Part shown: positions 8,949-22,134 of the stretch, piece by piece | How positions within the stretch are numbered: the stretch's first letter is position 1 | How the letters are laid out: each line of letters starts with the position of its first letter | From: a virus | Lineage: Duplodnaviria > Heunggongvirae > Uroviricota > Caudoviricetes | DNA: 64,000 bases | Direction: 5' to 3' (one strand) | Virus record (IMG/VR): IMGVR_UViG_3300031647_000750 | Coordinates: 128,025 to 192,024 of that record | Program-made: the position numbers and the translations under genes | Notes under the pieces: model-generated | Told to the model about the DNA's origin: nothing | The model's database searches: none | Seen by the model: the letters and a program-made list of their open reading frames with translations, nothing else

Positions 8949-10382
8949 ATGACAGAAAAGAAATTACCATCAGATACGTTTTGTATTCTACCTTGGATAC
9001 ATTTGAGTACTCGCCCAGACGGCAGTATGAGAGTATGTTGTACAGCAAATGCAAGTAGTGTTGGTGCAACAAATGATAAAGTTCACGGTGGGCGAGTTGG
9101 CATTGTTAAGACAGATGATGGTAAGCCTGCAAACCTAAACAACAGTGACTTGTCTAGTGCATGGAACAATAGTTACATGCGTGGTGTACGTCAACAAATG
9201 CTTGCAGGAGAAAAGCCTGCTAGTTGTTTGAAATGTTACAAAGAAGAAGATGCAGGACATCGATCTAAGCGACAGTGGGAAACCCAGTACTGGATGCGTG
9301 ATGGAATTGATGTTGATGAACTTGTTAAAGAAACATATGAAGACGGTTCAACTGATTCAAAACTACGATACATTGATATCCGTATGGGTACTAAATGCCA
9401 ACTTGGTTGCGTTATGTGTAGTCCACACGATTCATCAGGATGGGTAAAAGATTGGAATAAGTTGTATCCACAGATTACCAATGAGTCACTAAAAGAAACA
9501 ATGTCTTGGGATGATAAAGGCAAGCAGTTTGGTGCTAATTATAACTGGCATAAAAACAACCCACAGTTTTGGGAACAATTTTATGCTCAAATTCCATTCA
9601 TGCGTCAACTATACTTTGCAGGCGGCGAATCGACGGTTATCGAAGAGCATTATGAAATCCTAGATAAAGTTATTGAAATGGGTTATGCATCTCAGATTGA
9701 GTTGCGTTACAACAGTAATGGCATTGAATTGCCTGATCGTCTACTAGAGCAATGGAAGCATTTCCAAAAGGTACGTTTCCATTATAGTATTGACAGTATT
9801 GGTGAAATGAATGATTATATTCGTTACCCAAGTGAATGGTCACATCAACTTGCAATGTTTGAGCGTCTTGATACACAGACTTCTAACAACGTAGAGATTA
9901 CAATCGCGTGTGCAGTTAACGCACTAAACATTCACTACATTCCAGACTTCCTTAAATGGAAACTGCAATCAGACTTGAAGAAGACAAACATGTGGCCCTT
10001 TGGCGCTGGTGGCATTAACTATCACTTTGTATACTGGCCAGGACATTTGAATGTCAAGGTATTGCCAGATGAGTTCTTAGACAAAACCGAAGCGAAGTAT
10101 GAAGAGTTCATTGCATGGTGGAAAGAGAATTGGGAACTAGGTGTTCCAAGTTGGCACAAGGGTAAAGTAGATTATCAGAAATGGGAAGATGCTGAATATG
10201 GCATCAAGCGTTTACGTGGTATGATTAGTTTTGCTCGTAGTGAAGATTGGAGTCAGCGATTACCAGAGTTTAGAGAATACATTAACAAACTAGACGAGAT
10301 GCGCGGCACCGATTTCAGAAAAACATTTGCAGACATGGCTTACTTATTAGACGAGCCTACAGAGGACAATGATAGTGACTGA
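8949..10382 (+). CDS. Radical SAM enzyme, long form (paralog A), with an N-terminal RxCC motif and a central CxxxCxxC motif
   Basis: KCQLGCVMC is a C-x3-C-x2-C motif; FAGGESTV is a GGE motif; the N-terminal LPWIH..DGSMRVCC is shared with paralog B. Confidence 0.7.
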   Translation: MTEKKLPSDTFCILPWIHLSTRPDGSMRVCCTANASSVGATNDKVHGGRVGIVKTDDGKPANLNNSDLSSAWNNSYMRGVRQQMLAGEKPASCLKCYKEEDAGHRSKRQWETQYWMRDGIDVDELVKETYEDGSTDSKLRYIDIRMGTKCQLGCVMCSPHDSSGWVKDWNKLYPQITNESLKETMSWDDKGKQFGANYNWHKNNPQFWEQFYAQIPFMRQLYFAGGESTVIEEHYEILDKVIEMGYASQIELRYNSNGIELPDRLLEQWKHFQKVRFHYSIDSIGEMNDYIRYPSEWSHQLAMFERLDTQTSNNVEITIACAVNALNIHYIPDFLKWKLQSDLKKTNMWPFGAGGINYHFVYWPGHLNVKVLPDEFLDKTEAKYEEFIAWWKENWELGVPSWHKGKVDYQKWEDAEYGIKRLRGMISFARSEDWSQRLPEFREYINKLDEMRGTDFRKTFADMAYLLDEPTEDNDSD

Positions 10383-10923
10383 TGTAATACCAGTATTAAT
10401 TGCGTTAGAAGTGGAATTGCCCTATGAATTACCGACACCATATGTTAAAATAGTAACAGGTGTCGGTAAGATCAAAGCGACAATGGCAGCAATGGAAGCA
10501 GTATTTAAGTACAATCCTCATACCATTATCAATATGGGTACTGCGGGCAGTTTAGATCCTGATTTAGCACTAGGTGTACATGAAGTTAGTACCGTAGGTC
10601 AACGAGATATGGATGCATCGCCTTTAGGTTGGAAAGTAGGACAGACTCCGTTCACTGGTGAATTATGGATAGATCTAAAACTTAGTGGTGTTTCATTGAC
10701 TAGTGGTGATAACTTTGTCACAAGTCAGCCACCATTGAGTAGTACACTGGTTGATATGGAAGCATATGGTATTGCAATGGTATGCAAAAAGTATAAAGTT
10801 ATCTTTGATTGCTATAAGTACGTATCAGACTTTGCAGATGAAGATTCAACTACAGACTGGGAACAGAATTGCTCCGATGGTGCAAATGAATTCATGAAAA
10901 TATTATCAAATCGTAGCGAGTAA
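10369..10923 (+). CDS. 5'-methylthioadenosine/S-adenosylhomocysteine/5'-deoxyadenosine nucleosidase (Pfs/MtnN, PNP_UDP_1 family)
   Basis: TGVGKIKATMAAMEAV...INMGTAGSL and MEAYGIAMVCKKY align with Pfs GIGKVNAA..INTGSAGGL and EMEAAAIAQV. Confidence 0.6.
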   Translation: MIVTDVIPVLIALEVELPYELPTPYVKIVTGVGKIKATMAAMEAVFKYNPHTIINMGTAGSLDPDLALGVHEVSTVGQRDMDASPLGWKVGQTPFTGELWIDLKLSGVSLTSGDNFVTSQPPLSSTLVDMEAYGIAMVCKKYKVIFDCYKYVSDFADEDSTTDWEQNCSDGANEFMKILSNRSE

Positions 10924-10926
10924 ATA

Positions 10927-12492
10927 ATGTTAGATGTTGTCATGTTGGCGTATGGTGAACCAAACGCTGATCAAAATTTCAAAAGAATACAGAAATTAGC
11001 ACCCAATGCGAAGAGGGTAGATAATGTCGTCGGGATTTTAGAGGCACATCAAGCAGCAGCAAAATTGGCAACTACTGATAATTTTTATGTAGTAGATGCT
11101 GACGCGGTGTTATCTGAGCATTTTAATTTCTCATTCACACCTGATATCATTAAAGAATCGTATCCGGGTGTGAATGAATCAAGTTGTGTATTCGTATGGC
11201 AGAGTGTTAATGCAGTCAATGGATTGATTTATGGTTATGGTGGAGTAAAGTTATTCCCTAGACATAAGTTATTGAATGCGAAATCATTTCAGATAGATAT
11301 GACCACAACAATAGATGCACCATTAGTAGTGAAGCAACAAATATCTAATATAACCGAATTCAATACAGATGAATTCAGTACATGGCGCAGTGCATTCCGT
11401 GAGTGTACAAAACTAGCATCTAACCCCACTCCAGATATGGATGATCGATACAGATTAGATGTATGGTGTACTCGTGGAGATAGCAGTGCCCATGGAAAAT
11501 ATGCTATAATGGGTGCTAGACAAGGACGAGAGTTCGGTGCATTTTACAAAAATGATAAGAAAACTCTAGATAAAATAAACGATTTCACTTGGTTAACCAC
11601 TACATTTGACAAGTCATCAGTGCATACAATAGATCAGCATCACCCAATTCATTTATCATGGTTTCATGGACTAGAAGAATATTTTACATTGTCATCCGTA
11701 GAATCATACTATGCAGTATTTATTAAACTAAAGAATGCACTGGTATACGGTGATAACTGGGGCATTCGCGATCTTATTTTAGAAGAAGTAAATATAGGTA
11801 AGAATGAAGACACTGAACTTTATGTTAATGTAATACTTCAATCATTATTAATAGATGATTATGTAATACCAGATCATCAAGTATTGGAATATATTAATCG
11901 CAATATTAATGATAATTTTATATATGGATTGATGAAATTGTCTGACCCATCGCATGGTAATATTGATCTAGTAGATTTTATCACACGTGATTCGATGATA
12001 GGCAAGTCTTGGATGATTGAAGAATTAAGTAAGACAACGTTGGAACCATCTGATGTTGTAATATTGGGTGGTAACATATGCACCCATTCATCTATGTTAA
12101 TTAATAATTATGAAACAATTGAATCTATACTTAGTGTGGATATAGATCATAAGACAACAGAGTATGCTCGTTTGTTAAATCATATAGCAGAATCTGACGA
12201 ATTATTCAGTGCACAAACCAATGATGTATCTGATATAATATGGGATGAATCATCTCTGCCTGATTTATTGATAAACACTAGTTGCGCACATATGGATGAT
12301 ACATGGTTTGACAATATACCAGATACTGATGATACTTTGATAGTAATACAGACAAATGATTTTTCAGATAATATGAACTGCGTTAAAGATCTGTCTACCG
12401 CCATGACTAAATACCAAATGAAAGAAGTATTATTTAGTGGTGAACAAAGCACACAGTTATATAATAGATTTATGATTATAGGAATCAAGTAA
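10927..12492 (+). CDS. Two-domain protein: N-terminal GT-A (family 2-like) glycosyltransferase-like domain fused to a conserved C-terminal Rossmann-like (methyltransferase-like) domain
   Basis: N-terminal VVMLAYGEP...VVDADA (DxD). The C-terminal 150 aa are paralogous to the C-terminus of ORF 33512 (VILGGNICTHS / NTSCAHMDD / RFMIIGIK). Confidence 0.5.
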   Translation: MLDVVMLAYGEPNADQNFKRIQKLAPNAKRVDNVVGILEAHQAAAKLATTDNFYVVDADAVLSEHFNFSFTPDIIKESYPGVNESSCVFVWQSVNAVNGLIYGYGGVKLFPRHKLLNAKSFQIDMTTTIDAPLVVKQQISNITEFNTDEFSTWRSAFRECTKLASNPTPDMDDRYRLDVWCTRGDSSAHGKYAIMGARQGREFGAFYKNDKKTLDKINDFTWLTTTFDKSSVHTIDQHHPIHLSWFHGLEEYFTLSSVESYYAVFIKLKNALVYGDNWGIRDLILEEVNIGKNEDTELYVNVILQSLLIDDYVIPDHQVLEYINRNINDNFIYGLMKLSDPSHGNIDLVDFITRDSMIGKSWMIEELSKTTLEPSDVVILGGNICTHSSMLINNYETIESILSVDIDHKTTEYARLLNHIAESDELFSAQTNDVSDIIWDESSLPDLLINTSCAHMDDTWFDNIPDTDDTLIVIQTNDFSDNMNCVKDLSTAMTKYQMKEVLFSGEQSTQLYNRFMIIGIK

Positions 12493-13805
12493 TGAACGAT
12501 GACGATATAAAGAACAATGACACAGATAATGGGTTTTGCGCACTGCCATTTGTACAATATAGTACATTCAATGGGGGTCGTTATCGATTATGTTGTATGG
12601 CAAAGGAACCTAGTGAACTTATTAATCAAGAAGAACTAGGCATAGATGGAACATGGAATCATGATTACATTCGTAGTGTTCGTGAGCGTATGGCTACGGG
12701 CGAATGGCTACCAGAGTGTATAGAATGTAAAAGATTAGAACGTAACGATATTATAAGTTCTCGTCAATGGGAAAACTATTCATGGAAAGATCAGGTTCCA
12801 GATATTGTAGCATTGGCAAGTGCAAATGATTGGAATATAGAACAGCCTCTACAATTTGATTTTAGATTAGGTAATTTGTGTAATCTACAATGTCAGATGT
12901 GTAACAAAGAAGCATCGCATTTAGTAAGTGTTGAGCGTGCCAATATGATTGCAACAGATTTGGGTCCCAAATCTCCTAACTTAGATAGATATGATTGGGA
13001 CAATAATATTGCTAATAAAAAGAAAGCGATAATTCAGCCTGGCATCGATTGGGATAGTTTTGATAAGATGCTGCCATATGCACAGACGATTAAAATGATT
13101 GGCGGCGAACCAACTGTTGTATCTGATATGTTCAAGTTGCTAGACAGAGCAACTGAATCCGGATACGCAAAAAATATTACATTATCGTTCTACACGAACA
13201 TCACCAATATGCAAGATAGATGGTTGAAGCAATTTAGTCAGTTTAAGCAAGTTGTTGTAAATTGCTCATTAGAGGGCATGGGTGATATGAATGATTATTT
13301 ACGTCCGCCATCGCAGTGGGATTCAGTATGGGAAAATTTTGATAAGTTAGTAAAGTATTCAAATACATCAGAAGGAAAGAACATTCGTGTACGTGTCACT
13401 ACGGTGAATCAAGTAACAAACGCGTTGCATTTGGTTCCATTCTGGAGATTTATGCACGATTATCAACAGACTAATGACCGTACCATCGGCATGAGTACGA
13501 ATCAATTGGTAGAACCTGAATATTACTCAATGGCGCATAGTCCCCAATGGTTGCGTGATGAACAGAAATCACAGATACTAGAATTTTTAGAAGAGATAAA
13601 AGATAGTCCTCATTATGAAGATTATTCACGTCCGTTAATGGAAGCATTGCATTTTGGCGAAGATCCAGAAACCAAGTATGATCGTGGATTTATGAGGGAT
13701 TATGTTCAAGTAACAGAAAACTATGATAAGCATCGCGGACATGATGTGATGTCAGTAGCACCTGAATTTAGCCGAATTAAATCAGATTTAGAACTTGACA
13801 AGTAA
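12492..13805 (+). CDS. Radical SAM enzyme, long form (paralog B)
   Basis: LGNLCNLQCQMC is a C-x3-C-x2-C motif; MIGGEPTV is present; the N-terminal LPFVQY..GGRYRLCC is shared with paralog A. Confidence 0.7.
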   Translation: MNDDDIKNNDTDNGFCALPFVQYSTFNGGRYRLCCMAKEPSELINQEELGIDGTWNHDYIRSVRERMATGEWLPECIECKRLERNDIISSRQWENYSWKDQVPDIVALASANDWNIEQPLQFDFRLGNLCNLQCQMCNKEASHLVSVERANMIATDLGPKSPNLDRYDWDNNIANKKKAIIQPGIDWDSFDKMLPYAQTIKMIGGEPTVVSDMFKLLDRATESGYAKNITLSFYTNITNMQDRWLKQFSQFKQVVVNCSLEGMGDMNDYLRPPSQWDSVWENFDKLVKYSNTSEGKNIRVRVTTVNQVTNALHLVPFWRFMHDYQQTNDRTIGMSTNQLVEPEYYSMAHSPQWLRDEQKSQILEFLEEIKDSPHYEDYSRPLMEALHFGEDPETKYDRGFMRDYVQVTENYDKHRGHDVMSVAPEFSRIKSDLELDK

Positions 13806-13813
13806 GGAAATAA

Positions 13814-14482
13814 ATGACATCAACTAATATGGAATATTTAACTGAGATAGATTTTGCATTAACCACATATTGTCAAGCACGATGTAGAAGTTGTGCTAGA
13901 ACGAATCAACATACTGGTGAAAAAGAAGATTGGTTAGAACTCAAGCATATGAATCTAGATGTGTTTAAACGAACTCTTGCAGCATCTACTAATATAAAGT
14001 ATAATCTAATTGAGTTTTGTGGCGAGTTGGGCGATCCCATGATGCATCCACAAGTTGACAAATTTATAGAAACTGCATTAGAATATGCACCATCAATATT
14101 AATATCAACAAATGGTGCGCTTAGAAATGCAAACTGGTATAAGACGATAGCAGAAAAATACACAGACGATGTCTTTATAAATTGGGCAATTGATGGAGCA
14201 ACACATGACACCAATTGGAAGTATAGAGAAGGTGTTGATTTTAATAAAGCTTTTGAAAATATGAAAACTCACACTCAATCAGGTGGGGATGGTGAATGGC
14301 GATATTTAATATTTGAGTGGAATTGGCATGAAATACCGCTAGCACGTCAAATGGCAAAAGAGATTGGAATTAAAATTATTTTTTGCTTCAATAATAGAGA
14401 TTTTGGATTAATAACACCAGATTCTAGATTGGATGCAGAAAAATTATTAATAGGAGTGAGTCCAGATGACATCAAAGGGTAA
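13814..14482 (+). CDS. Radical SAM enzyme, short form (paralog C), N-terminal catalytic part only
   Basis: TTYCQARCRSC is a C-x3-C-x2-C motif and EFCGELGDPMMHP is present. The product ends where paralogs D and E continue into a (W/Y)PCC domain. Confidence 0.6.
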   Translation: MTSTNMEYLTEIDFALTTYCQARCRSCARTNQHTGEKEDWLELKHMNLDVFKRTLAASTNIKYNLIEFCGELGDPMMHPQVDKFIETALEYAPSILISTNGALRNANWYKTIAEKYTDDVFINWAIDGATHDTNWKYREGVDFNKAFENMKTHTQSGGDGEWRYLIFEWNWHEIPLARQMAKEIGIKIIFCFNNRDFGLITPDSRLDAEKLLIGVSPDDIKG

Positions 14483-14876
14483 ATATAATATTGAATGTCA
14501 ATCATTCGAAGCTCTAAATGAATTTACTAACCTCCCTGTAAGAAAATGGGAAGTAACACCAGAAGGAAGAGTGTGGCCATGTTGTTATTTTGCAAATGCA
14601 TGGGATAGACGACATATGATGAGGGCAGATGAATTGGGTCCCGATGAAGATTCTAGTGAAGAAGATTTTCATAATGTAAATGGTGAATCAGCAGAATTAT
14701 TGAATGATGCTAGAATGATGACTATAATAAATGAAGATCCTGATTGGAATAGTTTAGAACATCACTCTATAGAAGAAATCATAGCGCACGAAGTATTCCA
14801 CAGTTACATCTGGACTGAAGGATGGAATAGCGATAATCCTGCGATATTGTGTGTTAATAATTGTAATAAGTGTTGA
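14466..14876 (+). CDS. C-terminal WPCC-motif domain homologous to the C-termini of radical SAM paralogs D and E, encoded as a separate ORF overlapping 13814..14482 by 17 nt
   Basis: TPEGRVWPCCYFANAWD aligns with DGKVYPCCMFYA (22211) and WGTVWPCCHISNHA (37417). Confidence 0.5.
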   Translation: MTSKGKYNIECQSFEALNEFTNLPVRKWEVTPEGRVWPCCYFANAWDRRHMMRADELGPDEDSSEEDFHNVNGESAELLNDARMMTIINEDPDWNSLEHHSIEEIIAHEVFHSYIWTEGWNSDNPAILCVNNCNKC

Positions 14877-14936
14877 CAAGTAAGCCGTATTGTTGTATAA
14901 TAGTTATATAAGTTAATAAAGCGCAAGGAAATGAAT
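14873..14936 (+). promoter_or_regulatory. Conserved promoter plus leader cassette (TTGACAAGTAAG-N-TATAAT-AGTTATATAAGTTAAT-AAAG-AAGGAA)
   Basis: One of at least 6 near-identical cassettes. Others are at 32614, 33280, 51083, 51671 and 59293. Confidence 0.6.
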
Positions 14937-15077
14937 ATGTTAAATTTTTTAGAGACTACTGTTTTGCCAATGACACGTGTTATTGAAGCGAGCGGCTATT
15001 TTGAAATATTGTTATTATGTTTATTGCCAATCATGCTGATTGGTAGTGCGGTATTATTTAAGAAAGGTGAATTATAA
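14937..15077 (+). CDS. Small hydrophobic protein (46 aa)
   Basis: ATG follows the AAGGAA RBS of the conserved leader; one predicted TM segment. Confidence 0.4.
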   Translation: MLNFLETTVLPMTRVIEASGYFEILLLCLLPIMLIGSAVLFKKGEL

Positions 15078-15247
15078 TGGCTAGATTTAGTGAGTTTAAG
15101 CATTGGGTACAATCCATGTGGTATGATCATAAGCGCGAAAAGATTGAGTGGGAAGGTAGTCCACCAGATTACGGTTTTCGTACGTGGGTTAACATGAACA
15201 AATGGTTCATCAAGCGTATGTGGAAAGCACGTAACGAAGAATCATAA
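15077..15247 (+). CDS. Small Trp-rich protein (56 aa)
   Basis: TAATG coupling to the upstream small ORF. Confidence 0.35.
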   Translation: MARFSEFKHWVQSMWYDHKREKIEWEGSPPDYGFRTWVNMNKWFIKRMWKARNEES

Positions 15248-15297
15248 GTTTATATTAGACAGAACTGTAACGTATATCTGACCTTGTTCTAGACAAA

Positions 15298-15421
15298 AGG
15301 GTTTGGGTTGTAGCGCAGTCTGGGAGAAGCGTCTATCCTCGGTGATGTAGCATTAGATTAATTACCTAATACCCTGCATTACATAGATAGAAGGTCGTGG
15401 GTTCGAATCCCTCCAACTCCG
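15298..15421 (+). ncRNA. tRNA-like element with D-arm-like TAGCGCAGTCTGGGAG and T-loop GGTTCGAATCC but ~50 nt of extra internal sequence; the structure is unresolved
   Basis: tRNA-like motifs present; could not be folded into a canonical cloverleaf by hand. Confidence 0.25.
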
Positions 15422-15472
15422 TTAGAGTTTTGTCTAATATAAATATAGTTTAACTAAGCGTAGGGAAAAGTA

Positions 15473-15676
15473 ATGATTGTAGCACTAGCACTAATTGGGG
15501 CATTGTTCACAGTAGACCATGCAGAGTTTTTAAATCAGGTAGAGAAGAATAAAGCAGATGGTATGTCGTGGCATTACATTGGGTCAACTGCACCAAATGC
15601 AAATGATCCGTACATTGCTGCAATTAACAAAGAAACGGGTGAAGAAACTGTTTACTTTAAGATGTTACAGGACTAA
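15473..15676 (+). CDS. Small membrane protein embedded in the tRNA cluster
   Basis: ORF with RBS gggaaaag; hydrophobic N-terminus. Confidence 0.45.
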   Translation: MIVALALIGALFTVDHAEFLNQVEKNKADGMSWHYIGSTAPNANDPYIAAINKETGEETVYFKMLQD

Positions 15677-15707
15677 ATGTAACTAAGTATTTAATTGAAA
15701 ATAAGTG

Positions 15708-15736
15708 TTGACAAGAACGAAATAGTCTGTTACACT
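15708..15736 (+). promoter_or_regulatory. Promoter ATAAGTGTTGACAAG-17-TACACT (tandem copy 1)
   Basis: Extended -35 motif AAGTGTTGACA is repeated at 15822, 18138, 14868, 24966 and 38475. Confidence 0.55.
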
Positions 15737-15821
15737 TATTACATAGGTTTGAGAAGCGTAACTAAGCATTTTGAACCGAAAAAGATAAATAGAATCATAA
15801 GAAATAAAGTTAAAATAAGTG

Positions 15822-15850
15822 TTGACAAGATAGAAATAGTCTGTTATACT
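15822..15850 (+). promoter_or_regulatory. Promoter ATAAGTGTTGACAAG-17-TATACT (tandem copy 2)
   Basis: Near-identical 45-bp repeat of the 15701-15745 segment. Confidence 0.55.
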
Positions 15851-16039
15851 TATAACATAAACAGTTAAAGATAACTGTAATAAACAAGAGAACGAAACGA
15901 TGTTAAACACATTCTGTAATTTACATAGTAAACTAGATAGTCAACGCTGGTATCAGCCGGAGATTATGAATGTGCCCGCGAGTTTCTTAGACGAGGATGA
16001 TGGATTATATTAAGCCATTAAATCCAATAAATTTCTAAG

Positions 16040-16074
16040 AAACCCGCCAAGCGAAAGCAAAGCGGGTTTTTTTA
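16040..16074 (+). terminator. Rho-independent terminator
   Basis: AAACCCGC-loop-GCGGGTTT stem followed by TTTTT. Confidence 0.7.
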
Positions 16075-16238
16075 TGACAGTGTAAAAGTAGAAGCGGAAC
16101 GAGGTCGCTGAGATTACACTTTAAATAATATCTCTAAAATGGCGTGTTGTAGGATTGAAAGTTCTAGTTAGAATGAGTAAAATTATGACAGTATATTTTT
16201 ATACTAAAAAGCATTCATAGAGTGTTTTTCAGTATAAT

Positions 16239-16312
16239 GCTCGGTTAGCTCAAAGGTAGAGCCATCGCTCGATAAGCGATAGACGAAGGATCGTTACCTT
16301 CACTGAGTACCA
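16239..16312 (+). tRNA. tRNA, anticodon GAT (Ile) with atypical C33 and atypical T-loop ATCGTTA
   Basis: Hand-folded cloverleaf: acceptor GCTCGGT/ACTGAGT with G-U pairs, D-stem GCTC/GAGC, anticodon stem ATCGC/GCGAT, encoded CCA. A -10 TATAAT lies immediately upstream. Confidence 0.45.
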
Positions 16313-16359
16313 TTTTAAAATTGGAGATTCACTGCCATAAGTGTGAACTATAAAATTAC

Positions 16360-16436
16360 GGATTGTTAGCATAGTGGCTTAATGCAGCACCTTCATACGG
16401 TGAAGATCAATGGTTCAAATCCATTACAATCCACCA
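16360..16436 (+). tRNA. tRNA-Met (CAT)
   Basis: Acceptor GGATTGT/ACAATCC, D-stem GCAT/ATGC, anticodon loop TTCATAC, T-arm AATGG-TTCAAAT-CCATT, CCA encoded. Confidence 0.7.
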
Positions 16437-16444
16437 CAAGTTTT

Positions 16445-16520
16445 ACAGGGTATAGCTGAGTTTGGTTTAGCACGGGCCTTGGATGCCTGAGACGAGGGTT
16501 CAAGTCCTTCTTCCCTGACC
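16445..16520 (+). tRNA. tRNA-Pro (TGG)
   Basis: Anticodon stem CGGGC/GCCTG with loop CTTGGAT; T-arm GAGGG-TTCAAGT-CCTTC; acceptor with one mismatch; CCA encoded; D-arm irregular. Confidence 0.5.
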
Positions 16521-16574
16521 ATTAGAGATAGTGTATATCTCGTGTCTTTTATTAGATATAAAAATACAATTTAA

Positions 16575-16648
16575 TACTCTTGCCAGTGGAACTGGCAGTT
16601 GGGTTTCGACCCCGACTTGCGAATGTTCGATTCATTCCAGGAGTGCCA
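16575..16648 (+). tRNA. tRNA, probable anticodon TCG (Arg)
   Basis: Acceptor ACTCTTG/CAGGAGT; T-arm GAATG-TTCGATT-CATTC; anticodon loop TTTCGAC; D region atypical. Confidence 0.4.
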
Positions 16649-16794
16649 AATTTACTATGCTGGCTGCCGTCTACGTTTCCGGAAACTGACGTTAAATATT
16701 GAGGTTCAACTCCTCGGATACATTAAGGAAGGCTTGGTGTATCGCGTTACAGGCAACGTAAGGGTTCGACTCCCAAATAGTAAACCGCTTTGAT

Positions 16795-16872
16795 GGTGAT
16801 CGTAGCATAACTGGCAAATGCCCAAGGTTGTGAACCTTGTAGATCCGGGATCATACCCCGGCGATCACACCA
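16795..16872 (+). tRNA. tRNA-His (GTG) with extra G at -1
   Basis: G-1 plus acceptor GTGATCG/CGATCAC; D-stem GCAT/ATGC; anticodon stem CAAGG/CCTTG with loop TTGTGAA; T-stem CCGGG/CCCGG with atypical loop ATCATAC; CCA encoded. Confidence 0.65.
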
Positions 16873-16882
16873 CTTATTTTAT

Positions 16883-16968
16883 GGAAGATGATCTAGTCTG
16901 GGACTAGGATGACTTGCTAAGTCAATCGGCTCGAAAGGGTTTGGGATCGTAACCTACTTCTTCCGCCA
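16883..16968 (+). tRNA. Class II tRNA, probable Ser (GCT)
   Basis: Acceptor GGAAGAT/TTCTTCC; D-stem CTAG/CTAG; anticodon loop TTGCTAA; 86-nt length with a long variable region; CCA encoded. Confidence 0.45.
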
Positions 16969-16974
16969 CTTTTA

Positions 16975-17051
16975 GCGCGGTTGCCAGAGTAGCCAACGGA
17001 GCGGCTTGCAAACCCGTACAACCATCGGTGCAAATCCGATACCGCGCTCCA
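16975..17051 (+). tRNA. tRNA (possibly Cys, GCA); anticodon arm not confidently folded
   Basis: Perfect acceptor GCGCGGT/ACCGCGC; T-arm ATCGG-TGCAAAT-CCGAT; CCA encoded. Confidence 0.45.
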
Positions 17052-17099
17052 ATTTTAAGTTCCGTTCGTCTATCGGTTAGGACATACGGGAAGAATTAC

Positions 17100-17176
17100 A
17101 TCCCCATAGATTACGTTGGTTAAATCACTAGACTTTCACTCTAGCGAACCGGGATCGTCGCCCGGTGGGGATACCA
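17100..17176 (+). tRNA. tRNA-Glu (TTC)
   Basis: Perfect acceptor ATCCCCA/TGGGGAT; D-stem GATT/AATC; anticodon stem CTAGA/TCTAG with loop CTTTCAC; T-stem CCGGG/CCCGG with atypical loop ATCGTCG; CCA encoded. Confidence 0.7.
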
Positions 17177-17181
17177 TTTTT

Positions 17182-17280
17182 GTCTTATAGTTTAATATGG
17201 CATTTGGGTATGACGATACTCAAGAATAGAATCTTGCAATCAGCGAGAGATACAGGTATTGCATAATCCTGTTAAGACAA
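17182..17280 (+). ncRNA. tRNA-like element (~99 nt) with perfect 7-bp terminal pairing TGTCTTA/TAAGACA and stem ACAGG/CCTGT; interior not canonical
   Basis: Terminal helices seen; no CCA. Confidence 0.2.
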
Positions 17281-17292
17281 ATTATTTTTAAT

Positions 17293-17367
17293 GCATCGGT
17301 AGTGTCAATGGAAACACGCGAGATTCCAAACTTCGTATTCTAGGTTCAAGTCCTAGTCGGTGTGCCA
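17293..17367 (+). tRNA. tRNA-Trp (CCA)
   Basis: T-arm CTAGG-TTCAAGT-CCTAG; anticodon loop TTCCAAA; D-stem GTGT/ACAC; acceptor pairs partly through G-U; CCA encoded. Confidence 0.55.
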
Positions 17368-17479
17368 CATTAAGGTAGTTAAGCAGTTGAGAACCATATC
17401 GTGAAACCTACGGGGGAGTTGGTATTGGAACAAATAGTTCGCTGCTCAAGAGGGTGTTGACCTCTACTGCCACCCTTTT

Positions 17480-17578
17480 TATCTTGTTGCTTAATTAAAG
17501 CAGTGGAATCCCTCATACATCGTCAATGCTATGAGAATGATGTTTCCATGCATGTAGGTGCAAATCCTACCAAGATAA
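17480..17578 (+). ncRNA. tRNA-like element (~99 nt) with acceptor-like TATCTTG/CAAGATA and canonical T-arm GTAGG-TGCAAAT-CCTAC but a long unresolved interior (possible intron or long variable arm)
   Basis: Terminal helix and T-arm seen; interior not folded. Confidence 0.25.
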
Positions 17579-17589
17579 ATTATTTTTAA

Positions 17590-17675
17590 GCAGGATACGA
17601 CTCATGGTGAGACAGCGGATTGTAAATCCGTAGCGTGTAATGCGCAAGTAGGTTCAATTCCTTCATCCTGCACCA
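17590..17675 (+). tRNA. tRNA-Tyr (GTA), class II
   Basis: Perfect acceptor GCAGGAT/ATCCTGC; anticodon stem GCGGA/TCCGT with loop TTGTAAA; variable stem-loop; CCA encoded. Confidence 0.6.
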
Positions 17676-17682
17676 CTTTTAA

Positions 17683-17760
17683 GCCGCAGTGACCCAAATA
17701 GGTAGAGGTGCTGGTTTTAGAAACCAGATGTTGTAGGTTCGATCCCTACTTGCGGTACCA
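17683..17760 (+). tRNA. tRNA with anticodon TAG (would read CUA, Leu) but short (class I-like) variable region
   Basis: Anticodon stem CTGGT/ACCAG with loop TTTAGAA; T-arm GTAGG-TTCGATC-CCTAC; acceptor GCCGCAG/TTGCGGT with terminal G-U pairs; CCA encoded. Confidence 0.45.
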
Positions 17761-17795
17761 ACATAAATACAACCATATATAGGAGAAACCATATA

Positions 17796-18119
17796 ATGGC
17801 AATTACATTATCTAAAGAAGCATCAGAGCGCATATCAGATTACATGATCAACAGAGGACCTACGTACGGTGTACGTGTAGGTGTAAGAACAACAGGTTGT
17901 TCTGGTCTTGCATACATAGTAGAGTTTGTCGATAATATTGACGAGAATGATACAGTCTTTGTATCAAATGAAATAAGTATTGTAGTAGATCCTAAAGGTT
18001 TAACATACCTTGACGGTACTGAGTTGGATTATGGACGTGATGGACTCAACGAAGGATTCAGATTTAATAATCCAAACGCAAAAGACGAATGCGGTTGTGG
18101 CGAAAGTTTCACTGTATAA
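17796..18119 (+). CDS. A-type Fe-S cluster carrier (IscA/ErpA/HesB family)
   Basis: 107 aa with the conserved Cys triad (C..GCSG ... C-G-C-G C-terminal motif ECGCGESF). Confidence 0.75.
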   Translation: MAITLSKEASERISDYMINRGPTYGVRVGVRTTGCSGLAYIVEFVDNIDENDTVFVSNEISIVVDPKGLTYLDGTELDYGRDGLNEGFRFNNPNAKDECGCGESFTV

Positions 18120-18137
18120 TATTTTATTAAATAAGTG

Positions 18138-18166
18138 TTGACAAGAGAAGTATAATGCGTTACAAT
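18138..18166 (+). promoter_or_regulatory. Promoter ATAAGTGTTGACAAG-17-TACAAT
   Basis: Third copy of the extended -35 family. Confidence 0.5.
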
Positions 18167-18277
18167 AGCACAACGTTTTGAGAAAGACATAAAGTTTTTT
18201 GATAAATAAATAAGAAGTTTATGCTGACGTATTTCAAGTCACTAATTTAGAAATAGTTTAAAATAGTTTAAAATAGT

Positions 18278-18310
18278 AGTTGACAATAGTTAATAAGTTT
18301 GATATAATAG
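18278..18310 (+). promoter_or_regulatory. Promoter TAGTTGACAATAG-N-GATATAAT driving small-RNA candidate 1
   Basis: Consensus hexamers; similar to the promoter at 18465. Confidence 0.45.
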
Positions 18311-18314
18311 TAGA

Positions 18315-18450
18315 ACAAGTTGAGAGATCAACACGCTCTTTAAAAATAGTTTGTTTTAATATGTATTATTGTTGATGAAAGTAGGGCTTGATGTTGGAAG
18401 TAGAACCATTAAGGTGTCTGACGATAGTTAACAATAATATATTTTAAAAT
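18315..18450 (+). ncRNA. Candidate small RNA 1 (diverged member of a repeat family). It ends in ...GACGATAGTTAAC followed by A/T-rich sequence.
   Basis: No ORF; follows a promoter; shares 3' motif CGATAGTTAA and an internal GGAAGTAG..AAGG core with units at 18556 and 18715. Confidence 0.3.
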
Positions 18451-18464
18451 GAATTAAAATAGTT

Positions 18465-18498
18465 ATTGACATTGTTATGAAACTTTGTTATACTATTA
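18465..18498 (+). promoter_or_regulatory. Promoter TTATTGACATTG-N-TTATACT driving small-RNA candidates 2a and 2b
   Basis: Consensus-like -35 and -10. Confidence 0.45.
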
Positions 18499-18555
18499 AA
18501 GTGTTCTTTTGTATACACATTAGGTAGATACTGATTTTAGTAGGTATGGTGATTC

Positions 18556-18646
18556 GTGCTGAACGTTGAAGGGAATCGCTAAATGACAAGGGACTTGCTG
18601 TGTGGGATTAATCATCCCTGTCGTAGACAAGCGGTTGTTAAATAAT
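18556..18646 (+). ncRNA. Candidate structured small RNA 2a (core GTGCTGAACGTTGAAGGGAATCGCTAAATGACAAGGG...GGGATTAATCATCCC hairpin)
   Basis: Non-coding; near-duplicate of 18715-18812 with compensatory-looking changes. Confidence 0.35.
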
Positions 18647-18714
18647 GTGTATGCAAAAGTGTATTTTAATATATGCTATTGGGTAGAGCCAGATCGTAGT
18701 AAGCATAAGGGTGC

Positions 18715-18812
18715 GTGCTGAAATTTGAAGGGAATCGCTGAACGACAATAGGTTTAATGTATACAGACTAATCCCTGTATATTGGAACCAACGATAGTTA
18801 AACGATAGTATA
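18715..18812 (+). ncRNA. Candidate structured small RNA 2b (core GTGCTGAAATTTGAAGGGAATCGCTGAACGACAATAGG...)
   Basis: Paralog of 18556-18646; ends CGATAGTTAAACGATAG plus A/T-rich sequence. Confidence 0.35.
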
Positions 18813-18842
18813 TTTTAAAGTTTATTTTAAATAAAGTTTAAT

Positions 18843-18918
18843 TCCTGAATAGCTCAGTTGGTAGAGCAGTAGACTGTTAATCTATTTGTCGTTGGTTCGA
18901 GCCCAACTTCAGGAGCCA
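18843..18918 (+). tRNA. tRNA-Asn (GTT)
   Basis: Canonical cloverleaf: acceptor TCCTGAA/TTCAGGA, D-stem GCTC/GAGC, anticodon loop CTGTTAA, T-arm GTTGG-TTCGAGC-CCAAC, CCA. Confidence 0.85.
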
Positions 18919-19018
18919 TTTTCATAGTTAGTTTATTCCTTCTTACAGGATATCCTGAGAAGATACGAAGAAAACTGATAGCATCACATCTGAAACAATG
19001 ACGATGTGGTGCGGTTGC

Positions 19019-19092
19019 GCCCGATTAGTTAAGTGGTATAACAATTGCCTTGTAAGCATTAGTTGGTGGTTCGATTCCATCATTGGGCACCA
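19019..19092 (+). tRNA. tRNA-Thr (TGT)
   Basis: Acceptor GCCCGAT/ATTGGGC; D-stem GTTA/TAAC; anticodon loop CTTGTAA; T-loop TTCGATT; CCA. Confidence 0.7.
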
Positions 19093-19235
19093 TTTTTTAA
19101 AGTAGTATTAAGTAGTTACCCTAGCGGCTCATAAGAGAGAGTCGGTTCATTGCATATAGTTACAGTTATGTGTAGTCAGCGAAATGTGCATCTGTAAGTG
19201 CATGTAGACTCGGCTAACTTCTTAATATTATTTTT

Positions 19236-19311
19236 GCTGACGTAGCTCACTCGGGAGAGCGCGACCCTGTCAAGGTCGAGGTAGTGGGATCGAAACCCAT
19301 CGTTGGCGCCA
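19236..19311 (+). tRNA. tRNA-Asp (GTC)
   Basis: D-stem GCTC/GAGC; anticodon stem CGACC/GGTCG with loop CTGTCAA; T-stem GTGGG/CCCAT with loop ATCGAAA; CCA. Confidence 0.8.
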
Positions 19312-19357
19312 CATTTAAGATCAAATTTCTTGACCAGAAGTTTGAAACAACGTTTTA

Positions 19358-19448
19358 TAGAGAGTTGGCAGAGTGGTCGAATGCACTGGTCTTGAAAACC
19401 AGCAAGGGTTCATAGCCCTTCGAGAGTTCGAACCTCTCACTCTCTGCC
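19358..19448 (+). tRNA. tRNA-Ser (TGA), class II
   Basis: Perfect acceptor AGAGAGT/ACTCTCT; 3-bp D-stem; anticodon stem CTGGT/ACCAG with loop CTTGAAA; variable hairpin AAGGG/CCCTT; T-arm GAGAG-TTCGAAC-CTCTC; CCA. Confidence 0.85.
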
Positions 19449-19516
19449 ATTTTAGATAGTGCTAAATAGATAGTTCGTCAGATGATGTAACTATTTTATA
19501 GGAATAAACCATGTAT

Positions 19517-19591
19517 AATATAATTTGTCCCATTAGCATAATGGATAGTGCAGTGGATTTCTACTCCATAGATCAGGGTTCGACTCCTTGA
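19517..19591 (+). tRNA. tRNA-Arg (TCT)
   Basis: Perfect acceptor GTCCCAT/ATGGGAC; anticodon loop TTTCTAC; T-arm CAGGG-TTCGACT-CCTTG; CCA; -10 TATAAT upstream. Confidence 0.8.
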
Positions 19592-19711
19592 TGGGACACC
19601 AATTTTAAAGAGCGTACAGTATCATCGCTTGTCAAGTAGATACTCAGGTAACATCAGGCATAGCCCCTCATGATGTTATTAGGTGAGGGGGTGAGACAAG
19701 CACATTTTTAT

Positions 19712-19781
19712 ATCATCATTTGCCAATTGGTAAGGTTAGGCGAAGTAGTCGTTACTGGTTCGATTCCAGTTGGTGATACCA
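19712..19781 (+). ncRNA. tRNA-like element (70 nt) with a good acceptor and T-arm (ACTGG-TTCGATT-CCAGT) and CCA but a compressed, unresolved D/anticodon region
   Basis: Partial fold only. Confidence 0.3.
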
Positions 19782-19789
19782 ATTTTAAT

Positions 19790-19861
19790 GCGGGATGCTA
19801 AGGTATGCACTCCGGGCTCATAACCCGCGAGGTTGAGTTTCGATTACTCTTTCCGCTACCA
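19790..19861 (+). ncRNA. tRNA-like element with a CAT anticodon loop (CTCATAA) but an imperfect acceptor and T-stem
   Basis: Anticodon hairpin CCGGG/CCCGC is recognisable; other arms weak. Confidence 0.3.
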
Positions 19862-19866
19862 CATTA

Positions 19867-19944
19867 GGGCCTATAGCTTAGTTGGTTTAAAGCAGACGAC
19901 TCATAATCGTAAGATCCTTGGTTCAAGTCCAAGTAGGCCCACCA
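19867..19944 (+). tRNA. tRNA with CAT anticodon (elongator Met or Ile2-lysidine type)
   Basis: Perfect acceptor GGGCCTA/TAGGCCC; D-stem GCTT/AAGC; anticodon loop CTCATAA; T-arm CTTGG-TTCAAGT-CCAAG; CCA. Confidence 0.8.
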
Positions 19945-20081
19945 CTATAATTTATTTTTGTATAAGATTTGTCTTATACATTTACAGAAATCGCTTCTGT
20001 TATCGTGACATACAACGACAACGATAGCGTTACACTCGTAACAAATACATGTTAATTATGCGAGTTGACGATAACAGAGGC

Positions 20082-20156
20082 GGCGCTATTCGCGAGTATC
20101 GTATAATGGTTATTACGGGAGGTTTCCAACCTTTTGATGTCAGTTCGATTCTGACT
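20082..20156 (+). tRNA. tRNA-Gly (TCC)
   Basis: Perfect acceptor GCGAGTA/TACTCGC; anticodon loop TTTCCAA; T-arm GTCAG-TTCGATT-CTGAC; CCA. Confidence 0.85.
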
Positions 20157-20178
20157 ACTCGCTCCAATATGTAAGAAG

Positions 20179-20264
20179 TAAAGAACATGCCTTGGTGGTG
20201 GAATTAGGTATACACATCAGATTTAAAATCTGACGACTTCGGTCATGCGGGTTCAAGTCCCGCT
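20179..20264 (+). tRNA. tRNA-Leu (TAA), class II
   Basis: Anticodon stem TCAGA/TCTGA with loop TTTAAAA; variable hairpin GAC-TTCG-GTC; T-arm GCGGG-TTCAAGT-CCCGC; CCA. Confidence 0.85.
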
Positions 20265-20296
20265 CAAGGCACCAAAATTAAAATAGAAGATGTAAT

Positions 20297-21028
20297 ATGA
20301 ATAGTTTGTTTGAATACACAGAAGCAGTAGAAGAGTGCAAAGGTTCGTTAGAAGGTGATGGTGATAATAAGTTATTTACCGAAGCAGAGCGTGTTCTATC
20401 TACTGAAATAAACAACGAAGAAAAGATATTAAAGCATCCGATATTACATGAAGCGTTTGATCGCATCGTAGAGCAACATGTACCAAATCAATCAACTGCA
20501 TTTTTATCATTATGCACTGCTACTCGTCCTTATAACAAGAGCAAGAAGTGGAAAGGATTCATCAACAAGTTTGGTGGTAAGGTAGATATGATAGTTGTAT
20601 CTAATGGTGGTATGATGCCACAACAGTTTTGGAAAAGTTGGCCCTATTTGAATTACGATGGGGGTGATCATTATGATGTTAAAATGTATCAAGATATTAT
20701 GCATGAACGATTATTGAAGTTTTTTAGGAAGCACAATTACAGTAATGTTATTGCAAACTTTAGACCTAATTTAATCAATCATCAACCAGCACATGATGCG
20801 CTTTCTATTCTGAAAGAAGAAGGTAGCATTGGTGATTATATTGTAATGCCTAATCAGGAGTTGTATGATAAGGCACAGTCATTAGGTTGGCGACCACCAC
20901 AAGGTCAAGGTGATATGTTCCCTGATTTAACCAATACGATACTGAGTGCATTAACTGCTCAAGTGGAAGAATTCGGGTATGATGAAGATTTATTTACTGT
21001 TCATGAAAAATTAAAGTACAATAAGTAG
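20297..21028 (+). CDS. Hypothetical protein
   Basis: ORF; start immediately downstream of the tRNA cluster. Confidence 0.45.
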   Translation: MNSLFEYTEAVEECKGSLEGDGDNKLFTEAERVLSTEINNEEKILKHPILHEAFDRIVEQHVPNQSTAFLSLCTATRPYNKSKKWKGFINKFGGKVDMIVVSNGGMMPQQFWKSWPYLNYDGGDHYDVKMYQDIMHERLLKFFRKHNYSNVIANFRPNLINHQPAHDALSILKEEGSIGDYIVMPNQELYDKAQSLGWRPPQGQGDMFPDLTNTILSALTAQVEEFGYDEDLFTVHEKLKYNK

Positions 21029-21073
21029 GTTATTTTTATAGTATAAATAATACTATAGACAGGGAGAAAGATA

Positions 21074-21748
21074 TTGTTCAAGGGAATATATAATCTTTTT
21101 AAGCAGAAAGAAGAGCCTATAGCAGAGATGATTGAAATCCCTGTTAAAAACCCAGAATTACCTCATATTGTGTTTATACACGGTGCTGGATGTAGTCATC
21201 GCAGTTGGAATTATATATTAGCAAAACTTAACCCTACCCGTTACACTATGTTAGAGTATTCGGTAGATGATAAGTTTTATACTAATCTAAATAAACTGTC
21301 GACTATTGTTGGTCAAATACATGATAGGGATTTATTTATAATATCTCATTCTATGGGTGGTATATATGCATTGCATTTATGTCAGAGTTTTAGTCATAGA
21401 GTAATTGGTTCAATATCTATCGCGACTCCGTTTGCGGGATCGAGAACAGCAGATTTTGTAAAATATGTATATCCATCGTATATATTGTTTCGAGATGTTG
21501 GAGTAAGAAGTGCGCCTATTATGAGGTGTCATGATATTACAATCAATGTACCTTGGACACAGATAGTTACGACAGATGGGCATGTACCGTGGCATAAGGG
21601 TGAGAACGATGGTGTTGTGACGGTAGAAAGTCAGCGTCATCGTAAAGATATAGATTATGTAGAAATACATGTAACCCACCATGAAGCGTTGGTGAGTGAT
21701 GAAGCATTAGATATTATAAAAGAAAAATTAGATATCAAAAACGCTTGA
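21074..21748 (+). CDS. Alpha/beta-hydrolase fold protein (GxSxG: SHSMGG)
   Basis: HGAG..SW oxyanion-type motif plus nucleophile elbow ISHSMGGIYALHL. TTG start after RBS GGGAGAAAG; an alternative ATG exists at 21128. Confidence 0.5.
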   Translation: MFKGIYNLFKQKEEPIAEMIEIPVKNPELPHIVFIHGAGCSHRSWNYILAKLNPTRYTMLEYSVDDKFYTNLNKLSTIVGQIHDRDLFIISHSMGGIYALHLCQSFSHRVIGSISIATPFAGSRTADFVKYVYPSYILFRDVGVRSAPIMRCHDITINVPWTQIVTTDGHVPWHKGENDGVVTVESQRHRKDIDYVEIHVTHHEALVSDEALDIIKEKLDIKNA

Positions 21749-21822
21749 CAGAACACGTTACATAGTGTATAATAATTTATTAGATAAATAAAGTAGTAAG
21801 TATGAAGTGGTTACATAATCGT

Positions 21823-21898
21823 GGGGATATAGCTCAGTTGGGAGAGCGACTGCCTTGCACGCAGTAGGTCGTAGGTTCGATCCCTATTATCTCCACCA
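21823..21898 (+). tRNA. tRNA-Ala (TGC), copy 1
   Basis: GGGGATATAGCTCAGTTGGGAGAGC...CTTGCAC...GGTTCGATCC...TATCTCCACCA canonical. Confidence 0.9.
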
Positions 21899-21947
21899 TT
21901 ATGTGACTATTAGTCTAATAAATAAAGTAGCAAGTATGAAGTACAAT

Positions 21948-22023
21948 GGGGATATAGCTCAGTTGGGAGAGCGACTGCCTTGCACGCAGTAGGTCGTAGG
22001 TTCGATCCCTATTATCTCCACCA
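21948..22023 (+). tRNA. tRNA-Ala (TGC), copy 2, identical to copy 1 and part of a ~120-bp segmental duplication
   Basis: Identical sequence; the upstream flank AAATAAAGTAG(T/C)AAGTATGAAGT is also duplicated. Confidence 0.9.
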
Positions 22024-22058
22024 TTTTAAAATTAAAGAGATATCAAATTTCTTTAAAA

Positions 22059-22134
<76 letters not shown>

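Follow-up and report, generated by a model that had tools for sequence, protein, structure and literature searches.

Why would a virus place the same promoter and the same transcribed leader in front of one unrelated gene after another? This question is raised by a 64,000-nucleotide stretch of DNA from a tailed phage (hereafter the window: positions 128,025 to 192,024 of IMG/VR record IMGVR_UViG_3300031647_000750), in which a cassette of approximately 60 to 65 bp combines a σ70-type promoter, a conserved leader, a Shine-Dalgarno (SD) sequence, and a start codon. An earlier note on this DNA had described six near-identical copies of the cassette upstream of unrelated genes and had proposed that their leader is a shared element, such as a translational enhancer or a regulator-binding site. 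Our analysis indicates that each copy is probably a portable unit for early expression, belonging to an uncultured marine jumbo phage.

All genes called in the window lie on the plus strand, and its GC content is approximately 36%. The exact promoter TTGACA-N17-TATAAT occurs 14 times, against 0.5 expected, with 14 of 14 sites on the plus strand, and the 20-nt leader is matched with up to 3 mismatches at 4 sites, against 0.01 expected. Using a profile hidden Markov model (HMM) trained solely on cassettes from other contigs, with no window sequence in the training set, we recovered 5 full-length copies with E values of 1e-11 to 1e-16 (Table 1). The exact TTGACA-N17-TATAAT promoter is present in 4 of these copies, and the fifth has one mismatch. 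The site at 59293, which the earlier note had counted as a sixth copy, shares the promoter and spacer of the family, but its leader is only 56% to 69% identical over 16 nt, so that the near-identical set comprises the five full copies. The positions given for 14873, 33280, and 51671 were exact, whereas the other two -35 boxes start at 32613 and 51082 instead of 32614 and 51083.

Conservation is not confined to the promoter hexamers. Among the five full window copies, mean pairwise identity is 93% in the -35 box, 64% in the spacer, and 100% in the -10 box. Downstream of the -10 box, the first 16 nt are 93% identical and the first 25 nt 78% (ungapped), whereas the 25 nt lying further up- or downstream are only 26% to 31% identical. 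In this respect the earlier claim of conservation well beyond the hexamers is confirmed.

The cassette is also present in other phage genomes. The exact 22-mer TATAATAGTTATATAAGTTAAT was found in 9 IMG/VR contigs, 7 of which carry real cassettes, and allowing C or T at one position extended the matches to 77 metagenome stretches. The 22-mer matches in contigs L005 and L006 were rejected as cassettes for want of a -35 box and an SD sequence; there, the 22-mer encodes, on the other strand, the N terminus (MINLYNYY...) of tandem paralogues and is unrelated. A scan of all fetched loci from IMG/VR and marine metagenomes, in which cassettes were gathered by leader match or HMM, yielded 150 distinct full cassettes. 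The open reading frames (ORFs) behind these 150 are small (median 89 aa) and represent at least 54 unrelated families, so the reuse before unrelated genes that had been noticed in the window holds on a larger scale. No Pfam domain was found in 10 representative cassette-driven proteins. Among cultured phages, a blastn search with the consensus against 50,697 phage records returned weak partial matches only, so that none of them carries the cassette. Similarly, 50 loci with homologues of the window gene 33512-34762 contained no cassette at E ≤ 1e-3 (best E 0.11 in 499 kb), and the cassette is therefore limited to a narrower clade than this widespread gene. In many unrelated marine phage contigs (L128-L170; for example L131 at 2593 and L145 at 3755), the sequence ATGTATGATAT... 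begins just 5 to 8 nt after the TATAAT of a consensus promoter upstream of the homologue of that gene, an arrangement that looks like a conserved leaderless gene. Another eight contigs (L011, L026, L030, L040, L051, L081, L116, and L117) have the same -35 box and left part of the spacer (TTGACAAGTAAGGC...CTTAC) followed by lineage-specific leaders such as GTAAGTATAAAGTTAATTAAAAGGAG and AGTAGTATATTAAATAAAAGGAG, and GTTA lies within 20 nt of the -10 box in 11 of 21 such promoters versus 8 of 58 controls. This suggests a wider and older family of cassettes.

An information profile over the 150 cassettes delimits a conserved block from approximately -42 to +13 and a purine-rich tail to +22, with information close to zero outside. 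Here, +1 is placed 7 nt after the -10 box, with a conserved T at -1 and A at +1. From 5′ to 3′, the population consensus consists of an A-rich stretch, TTGACA, the spacer AGTAAGGCTCCTTAYKK, TATAAT, the discriminator AGTTAT, the core ATAAGTTAAT (+1 to +10), any nucleotide, AAAG, a purine-rich SD region (+15 to +22), and ATG. The A-rich stretch upstream of the -35 box resembles a proximal UP element subsite, and the location of the SD sequence and start codon at the 3′ end follows the definition of the PeSL (promoter-early stem-loop) cassettes of T4-type phages. The sequence has what is expected of a σ70 promoter, namely hexamers 17±1 bp apart, AT-rich DNA upstream, and a purine at the predicted start, 6 to 8 nt after the -10 box. 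No indel separates the leader block from the -10 box in the 150 copies, whereas its spacing to the ATG differs by up to 8 nt; in 146 of the 148 cassettes whose start codon could be assigned, the ATG follows the -10 box by 29 to 37 nt. The exact core occurs 5 times in the window, each time at +1 to +10 of a TATAAT promoter and never at an internal ribosome-binding site, and approximately 95% of the window genes are without it. The weak relative at 3928 shows that the core can exist without the family spacer. Stop codons are found in all three frames within the first 39 nt of the cassette, and three upstream genes in the window terminate within the -35/AGTAAG segment. The stop TGA of the SPASM-like gene 14466-14876 falls within the -35 box of cassette 1, the stop TAA of gene 32165-32623 within the AGTAAG of the cassette 2 spacer, and the 13-bp remnant at 13795 contains the stop of gene 12492-13805, directly followed by a radical-SAM gene (ATG 13814). 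This allows cassette-gene units to follow one another head to tail.

The window is a piece of an uncultured marine jumbo phage that is distantly related to Pseudomonas phage PA5oct. This assignment follows from the absence of cultured relatives at the DNA level (megablast with 6 kb of the window), from the closest cultured proteins, which are those of PA5oct-like Pseudomonas jumbo phages of the Arenbergviridae (44% to 53% amino acid identity), and from the sources of the contigs with the same cassette, which are TARA Oceans and IMG metagenome assemblies (marine, polar). The window and PA5oct have in common a gene neighbourhood encoding a ClpX-like protein, bS21, ClpS, QueD, and a clamp loader. 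The clamp loader alone is of a T4-like family, and the phage is not a T4-type myovirus. Scanning host genomes gave 2 isolated matches, in archaeal metagenome-assembled genomes, which we took as chance and which thus point to no host. In the 50 kb of PA5oct examined, the promoters share only the hexamers, without a common spacer or leader block, and the leader motif has 6 near-matches versus 4.1 expected.

As an early-expression unit, the cassette would be used by the host RNA polymerase holoenzyme upon entry of the DNA into the cell. Because a consensus promoter would hold the polymerase too tightly, promoter escape would become limiting, and the AT-rich initial transcribed sequence without (T/C)G steps may have been selected for fast escape. 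The fixed discriminator AGTTAT and the transcript start ATAAGTTAAT-N-AAA would thus be tuned for fast start and escape, and the 5′ untranslated region, approximately 25 nt long, AU-rich, and unstructured, would leave ribosomes open access. In a large screen, (T/C)G steps, especially near +6, slowed promoter escape (PMC5961368), and the consensus-like N25 promoter of phage T5 is reported to be escape-limited and modulated by its initial transcribed sequence (PMC12464699). Transcription of PA5oct relies on host RNA polymerase, and 32 promoters of this phage carry conserved TTGAC and TATAATA motifs (PMC7318152). We infer use of the host σ70 holoenzyme at the cassettes by analogy with this rifampicin-sensitive phage. 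The cassettes have the appearance of early promoters, as the earlier note had it, and of promoters for the host polymerase; the early timing, the exact transcription start, and the benefits for escape and translation are likewise predicted. The first 13 transcribed nucleotides are free of (T/C)G steps in 126 of 150 cassettes versus 41 of 150 control windows, although this deficit describes the consensus and is no independent test because the cassettes were collected by similarity. Over the same positions GC content is 13% versus 38% in the controls.

Several points weigh against this explanation. The +1 position was predicted from spacing alone. Positions +2 to +10 carry 1.0 to 1.8 bits each, as much as the hexamers, and this conservation exceeds the obvious need of the known effects of initial transcribed sequences. 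A dyad in the promoter spacer, described below, has no role in the proposed mechanism. The consensus, including its lack of (T/C)G steps, is partly a product of ascertainment, the set having been collected by leader match or HMM. Finally, the PA5oct promoters do not have the extended conservation, which is therefore dispensable for promoter function in this phage group.

A further property of the cassettes, overlooked in the earlier note, is that related phages lose and regain homology at their edges. The window and contig L088 are approximately 85% to 95% identical from the gene that ends at 51017 through the terminator (51034-51062) and on to the end of cassette 4. After the orthologous cassette 4, L088 has an unrelated ORF of approximately 85 aa in place of the 173-aa lipoprotein gene, and homology is back exactly at the -35 box of cassette 5. 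Similarly, L049 and L180 carry a complete cassette and a 118-aa ORF where the window has the remnant TTGACAAGTAAGG and a radical-SAM/SPASM gene pair (13814-14876), which both contigs lack, and the two arrangements rejoin at cassette 1. Homologues of this pair, approximately 67% identical in DNA and with related promoters, are present in L011 and L048. Among eight contigs (L007, L225, L220, L187, L205, L207, L250, and L239), the order and content of the cassette-ORF units differ between fixed neighbours, and one unit has switched side and orientation. Because they are stretches of approximately 60 bp of near-identical DNA, the cassettes probably act as homology patches for the insertion, deletion, and exchange of modules among related phages. 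Contig L003 is 98.4% identical to window positions 9265-16317 and mosaic beyond, with homologues of the window genes 62960-63343 and 38957-39403 (QueD-like) in or beside its tRNA region; shuffling therefore extends beyond the full cassettes.

Other explanations start either from the spacer or from the leader. The spacer contains a dyad, likewise overlooked in the earlier note, with the consensus GTAAGG-N2-CCTTAC (population consensus AGTAAGGCTCCTTAC, centred between s8 and s9). In 94 distinct promoter cores, 385 of 658 in-register pairs are complementary versus 111 to 178 in shifted registers, the best symmetry centre scores 0.85 and the next best 0.70, and the two halves share their base preferences (cosine 0.93 to 1.0 for the five central pairs, comparing left with complemented right columns). 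Covariation between the halves was not detected (p = 0.11 and 0.20), which favours two independently read half-sites, as bound by a dimeric DNA-binding protein, over a hairpin. Inverted half-sites with the same base preferences, as in a dimeric operator, are thus seen at the population level, but they are weak in the window, where 2 to 4 of 7 pairs are kept in the five full copies. A phage dimeric protein bound to this putative operator, and perhaps to ATAAG at +1 to +5, might block the polymerase and switch off the early regulon, which could hold alongside the early-expression explanation. Its position between the -35 and -10 boxes is the classic one for a repressor site, and the Arc operator of the P22 Pant promoter lies there. 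We consider this possible but rather unlikely, given the weakness of the dyad in this window and the lack of a candidate regulator among the cassette-driven families (those 10 representatives being without Pfam domains); moreover, the left half, AGTAAG, also provides stop codons to upstream genes, and common descent could equally account for the conserved spacer. Scanning 30 additional proteins revealed no further regulator. That the conserved region instead forms a functional RNA or DNA hairpin (a riboswitch, an attenuator, a promoter-embedded terminator, or an N4-type hairpin promoter) might be suggested by the palindromic spacer consensus and by the PA5oct terminator hairpins that straddle a -35 box, but it is next to inconceivable. 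The dyad shows no compensatory changes and is not followed by a run of T residues, on which grounds a hairpin or terminator in the spacer was rejected. When folded from the predicted +1, leader RNAs have a lower stability than shuffled sequences (z +0.2 to +1.7), and Rfam recognized only tRNAs in the window; on these results, with the lack of covariation in the dyad, a structured leader such as a riboswitch or attenuator was rejected. In PA5oct (L255), the two composites at 22908-22950 and 36464-36508 consist of the hairpin GGGCAC-TTGACA-GTGCCC, a T-run, and TATAAT, and are thus compact terminator-promoter units; a similar small hairpin surrounds a -35 box at 43319 of the window. The dyad could also be bound by a factor that joins a polymerase paused in a σ-dependent manner at TAAGTT (+2 to +7), which would make the cassette a site where a processive antiterminator is loaded, as in the case of lambda PR′. 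TAAGTT holds the TAnnnT key positions of a -10 element, the dyad between the hexamers looks like a protein site, and the genes all run in one direction with few terminators seen. However, a lambdoid late operon has a single site of this type, whereas the cassette stands in many copies before single small genes, no Q-like protein was identified, and TAAGTT is only weakly similar to a pause element, so that this scenario is very improbable.

With regard to the leader, the transcribed block could be an RNA signal, either a translational enhancer or an operator, read by ribosomes carrying the phage bS21 and IF3 or by a RegA-type protein. The IF3 and bS21 genes are adjacent and lie approximately 900 bp upstream of cassette 2, the core at +1 to +10 is the most invariant part and is kept where the discriminator or spacer differs (at 3928, and at 2649 of L088), and the leader is AU-rich and unstructured. 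Nevertheless, the block is fixed in register to the -10 box and variable relative to the SD sequence and ATG, internal genes are without it, the five exact core sites of the window all being linked to promoters, and PA5oct encodes bS21 in the same neighbourhood while its near-matches to the motif stay near expectation. In addition, IF3 and bS21 act at the SD sequence, the anti-SD sequence, and the start codon rather than at a 5′-terminal motif (PMC9723584). An RNA signal of this kind is therefore unlikely, and the IF3- or bS21-dependent translational element proposed earlier is not supported: nothing connects the two proteins with the leader, and the block is tied to the -10 box, found at promoters only, and missing from a phage that has bS21. 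A RegA-like translational repressor was discarded, no homologue being found among the six-frame ORFs. Still less would seem to speak for a leader without function, in which a single promoter region has recently been multiplied by duplication and recombination and the downstream 16 nt merely hitch-hike. Recombination at the cassettes is evident, and lineage-own leader variants behind the same AGTAAGG spacer are what concerted evolution would give. However, +1 to +10 is near-invariant in 150 distinct copies from many contigs with random flanks, orthologous cassettes in genomes of approximately 85% DNA identity keep the core despite spacer differences at 5 of 17 positions, and conservation stops sharply at +13 in all copies, which makes this reading quite unlikely. 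Doubtful, though worth naming, is a broader proposal in which the +1 to +10 block ATAAGTTAAT, the dyad, or both are candidate sites for a phage factor, be it a dimeric repressor or IF3/bS21-remodelled ribosomes. If it were true, the cassette would mark the members of a regulon that is switched as a whole in a clade of uncultured marine jumbo phages, and it would provide the first concrete mRNA or DNA target of phage-encoded translation factors. Two side observations concern the leader sequence. It fits neither the NAD-capping nor the RNase E consensus. The sequence AAGTTAAT (+3 to +10, for example 14910-14917) is sense-identical to E. coli 16S rRNA (...GGGAGTAAAGTTAATACC...), in the region to which the epsilon translational enhancer of phage T7 is complementary; E. 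coli may not be the host, and an 8-mer identity could be chance.

In addition to the full cassettes, the window contains partial and remnant copies and a second promoter family (Table 1). The 15-mer ATAAGTGTTGACAAG is exact at 14866, 15701, 15815, and 18131 and has 2 mismatches at 24965. The shared extended -35 box that had been claimed for five sites is thus exact at 15708, 15822, and 18138, less so at 24972, and more diverged at 38480. The tandem copies are 114 bp apart. A convincing intrinsic terminator precedes one of the five full cassettes, cassette 4, and no other among the 20 promoter sites checked; the only other hit of the scan, at 51636 before cassette 5, is a weak, mismatched stem consisting of A-T pairs only. 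Scanning for the cassette 4 terminator elsewhere detected it in L088 only.

Table 1. Cassette copies and related promoter features in the window, with HMM matches, sequence elements, and the genes that follow.
Feature	Coordinates	Strand	HMM span or model positions; E value	Promoter or hairpin	Leader	Start and downstream gene or context
Full cassette 1	14866-14939	+	14865-14922; 1.2e-14	upstream ATAAGTG; -35 TTGACA 14873-14878; 17-bp spacer AGTAAGCCGTATTGTTG; -10 TATAAT 14896-14901	block AGTTATATAAGTTAAT 14902-14917; predicted transcription start A14908	SD AAGGAA; ATG 14931 or 14937; 46-48 aa hydrophobic ORF
Full cassette 2	32606-32678	+	32605-32663; 9e-15	-35 32613-32618; -10 32636-32641	block 32642-32657	ATG 32676; 121-aa ORFan
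Full cassette 3	33273-33342	+	33271-33331; 1.3e-11	-35 33280-33285; -10 33303-33308	block ATTTATATAATTTAAT 33309-33324	ATG 33340; 47-aa ORF
Full cassette 4	51075-51148	+	51072-51131; 1.1e-16	-35 51082-51087; spacer ACCAAGGCTCCTTACGA; -10 51105-51110	block 51111-51126	ATG 51146; 173-aa lipoprotein
Full cassette 5	51664-51735	+	51664-51722; 2.2e-13	-35 TTGACT 51671-51676; -10 51694-51699	block GGTTATATAAGTTAAT 51700-51715	ATG 51733; 103-aa ORF
Partial cassette (59293)	59286-59349	+	positions 3-42 only	TTGACA AGTAACTCATATTGTTA TATAAT of the family	short, different: ATCTATATTAAATAAGGAAG	ATG 59347
Partial cassette (53743)	53736-53807	+	positions 5-42	starts TTGACAAGTAAC	unrelated	ATG 53805; opens phosphoribosyl pyrophosphate (PRPP) synthetase gene
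Truncated remnant	13795-13807	+	HMM match	13 bp, TTGACAAGTAAGG		
Weak relative (3928)	3928-3991	+		consensus promoter, unrelated spacer	TATAAT TAATAC ATAAGTTAAT	conserved in L049
Intrinsic terminator	51034-51062	+		hairpin AAAGACGC-TAAAT-GCGTCTTT, then T-run		20 bp upstream of cassette 4
Second family, tandem	15701-15850	+		AAAATAAGTGTTGACAAG...TACACT and ...TATACT; -35 boxes 15708, 15822		upstream of tRNA array
Second family	18131-18166	+		ATAAGTGTTGACAAG...TACAAT		inside tRNA region
Second family, similar extended -35 box	24965-25000					
Second family, similar extended -35 box, more diverged	38473-38508					

The region from 16.2 to 22.1 kb of the window is an array of 18 to 19 tRNA genes (16239-22134), apparently driven by consensus promoters at 15708, 15822, 18138, 18280, 18466, and 21745. 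Rfam recognized an extra tRNA at 17590-17672 that ARAGORN missed, and the ARAGORN calls tRNA-His (16796-16872) and tRNA-Glu (17100-17176) are not above threshold in the Rfam list. The adjacent IF3 and bS21 genes occupy 30969-31475 and 31478-31720 (Pfam IF3_N and IF3_C, and PF01165, respectively), within a gene row (29750-32139) encoding a ClpX-like ATPase, IF3, bS21, and ClpS. The same ClpX-bS21-...-ClpS order is found in PA5oct gp229-gp224, without IF3 at the corresponding position. Other window genes encode a ClpP-like protein, QueD, and a clamp loader of the T4-gp44 type. At least 5 radical-SAM or SPASM-domain genes are located at 8949-14876, 22211-23236, and 37417-38475. Auxiliary metabolic genes at 39660-40983, 49950-51017, 53805-54776, and 61655-62914 form a set encoding a ferredoxin, a phosphoribosyltransferase, an IscA-like Fe-S assembly protein, an SbmA/BacA-like inner-membrane transporter, PRPP synthetase, and a NifS/IscS-like aminotransferase. 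At 42530-43060, the match to the DNA polymerase III alpha NTPase domain is limited to a fragment of it.

The cassette provides a sharply bounded early signal for a marine and polar jumbo-phage clade without a cultured member, in whose metagenomic contigs it could help to delineate early genes and transcription units. It also adds a PA5oct-like lineage to the T4-type phages in which cassette-mediated shuffling is known, and it indicates that an upstream terminator stem-loop is not required for such shuffling. Ordinary promoter function does not account for the near-invariant first ten transcribed nucleotides and the symmetric spacer, in a phage that carries its own IF3 and bS21. Finally, such a compact and strong module of promoter, leader, and ribosome-binding site is a possible expression part.

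Several known systems resemble the cassette in part. The early promoters of phages T4 and T5 show extended consensus conservation, and they are likewise very strong, used by the host polymerase, and conserved outside the hexamers. The T5 N25 promoter reads TATAAT AGATTC ATAAATTTGA where the cassette has TATAAT AGTTAT ATAAGTTAAT, both with an A-initiated, AT-rich initial transcribed sequence. In N25, this sequence controls promoter escape (PMC12464699). Unlike the T4 and T5 promoters, the cassette has a full TTGACA -35 box, a +1 to +10 segment that is near-invariant across many genomes, and a spacer dyad. The PA5oct promoters, from a phage with the same gene neighbourhood, are similarly used by host RNA polymerase and have TTGAC and TATAATA motifs (PMC7318152). 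In the 50 kb examined, however, they share only the hexamers and have neither a common spacer nor a leader block. A dyad of approximately 14 bp centred in a 17-bp spacer is also found in the P22 Arc operator and in engineered T5 promoters in which lacO is placed between the -35 and -10 boxes; the putative site described here differs in being degenerate in the window. Arrays of unrelated small ORFs with variable content, separated by imperfectly symmetric repeats of approximately 60 bp, recall integron cassettes. Integron cassettes do not have their own promoter, whereas the repeat described here is a complete σ70 promoter-SD-ATG unit; no integrase or attC-type extended palindrome is present, and the exchange looks like homologous recombination, so an integron-like reading was rejected. 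The closest described elements are the PeSL cassettes of T4-type phages (Arbiol et al. 2010, Comeau et al. 2014; PMC2839356, PMC4122927). Both are short conserved blocks with a near-consensus σ70 promoter and with an SD sequence and start codon at the end, both are repeated before unrelated small ORFans in plastic regions, and both bound indels and replacements. Recombination between PeSL elements gives rise to packaged mini-circles. The PeSL has an upstream terminator stem-loop, which is convincing here in one of five full cassettes (1 of 20 sites), the symmetric element of the cassette is located inside the spacer and is not a hairpin, its first 13 or so transcribed nucleotides are conserved like the hexamers, and its phage is PA5oct-like rather than T4-like. 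The cassette thus works like a PeSL without being a strict member, having three of the defining features and lacking two. What is new with respect to these elements is the near-invariant +1 to +10 core, the symmetric spacer, the phage lineage, and the marine distribution, and the cassette is a new variant of a known phage strategy rather than a new type of element.

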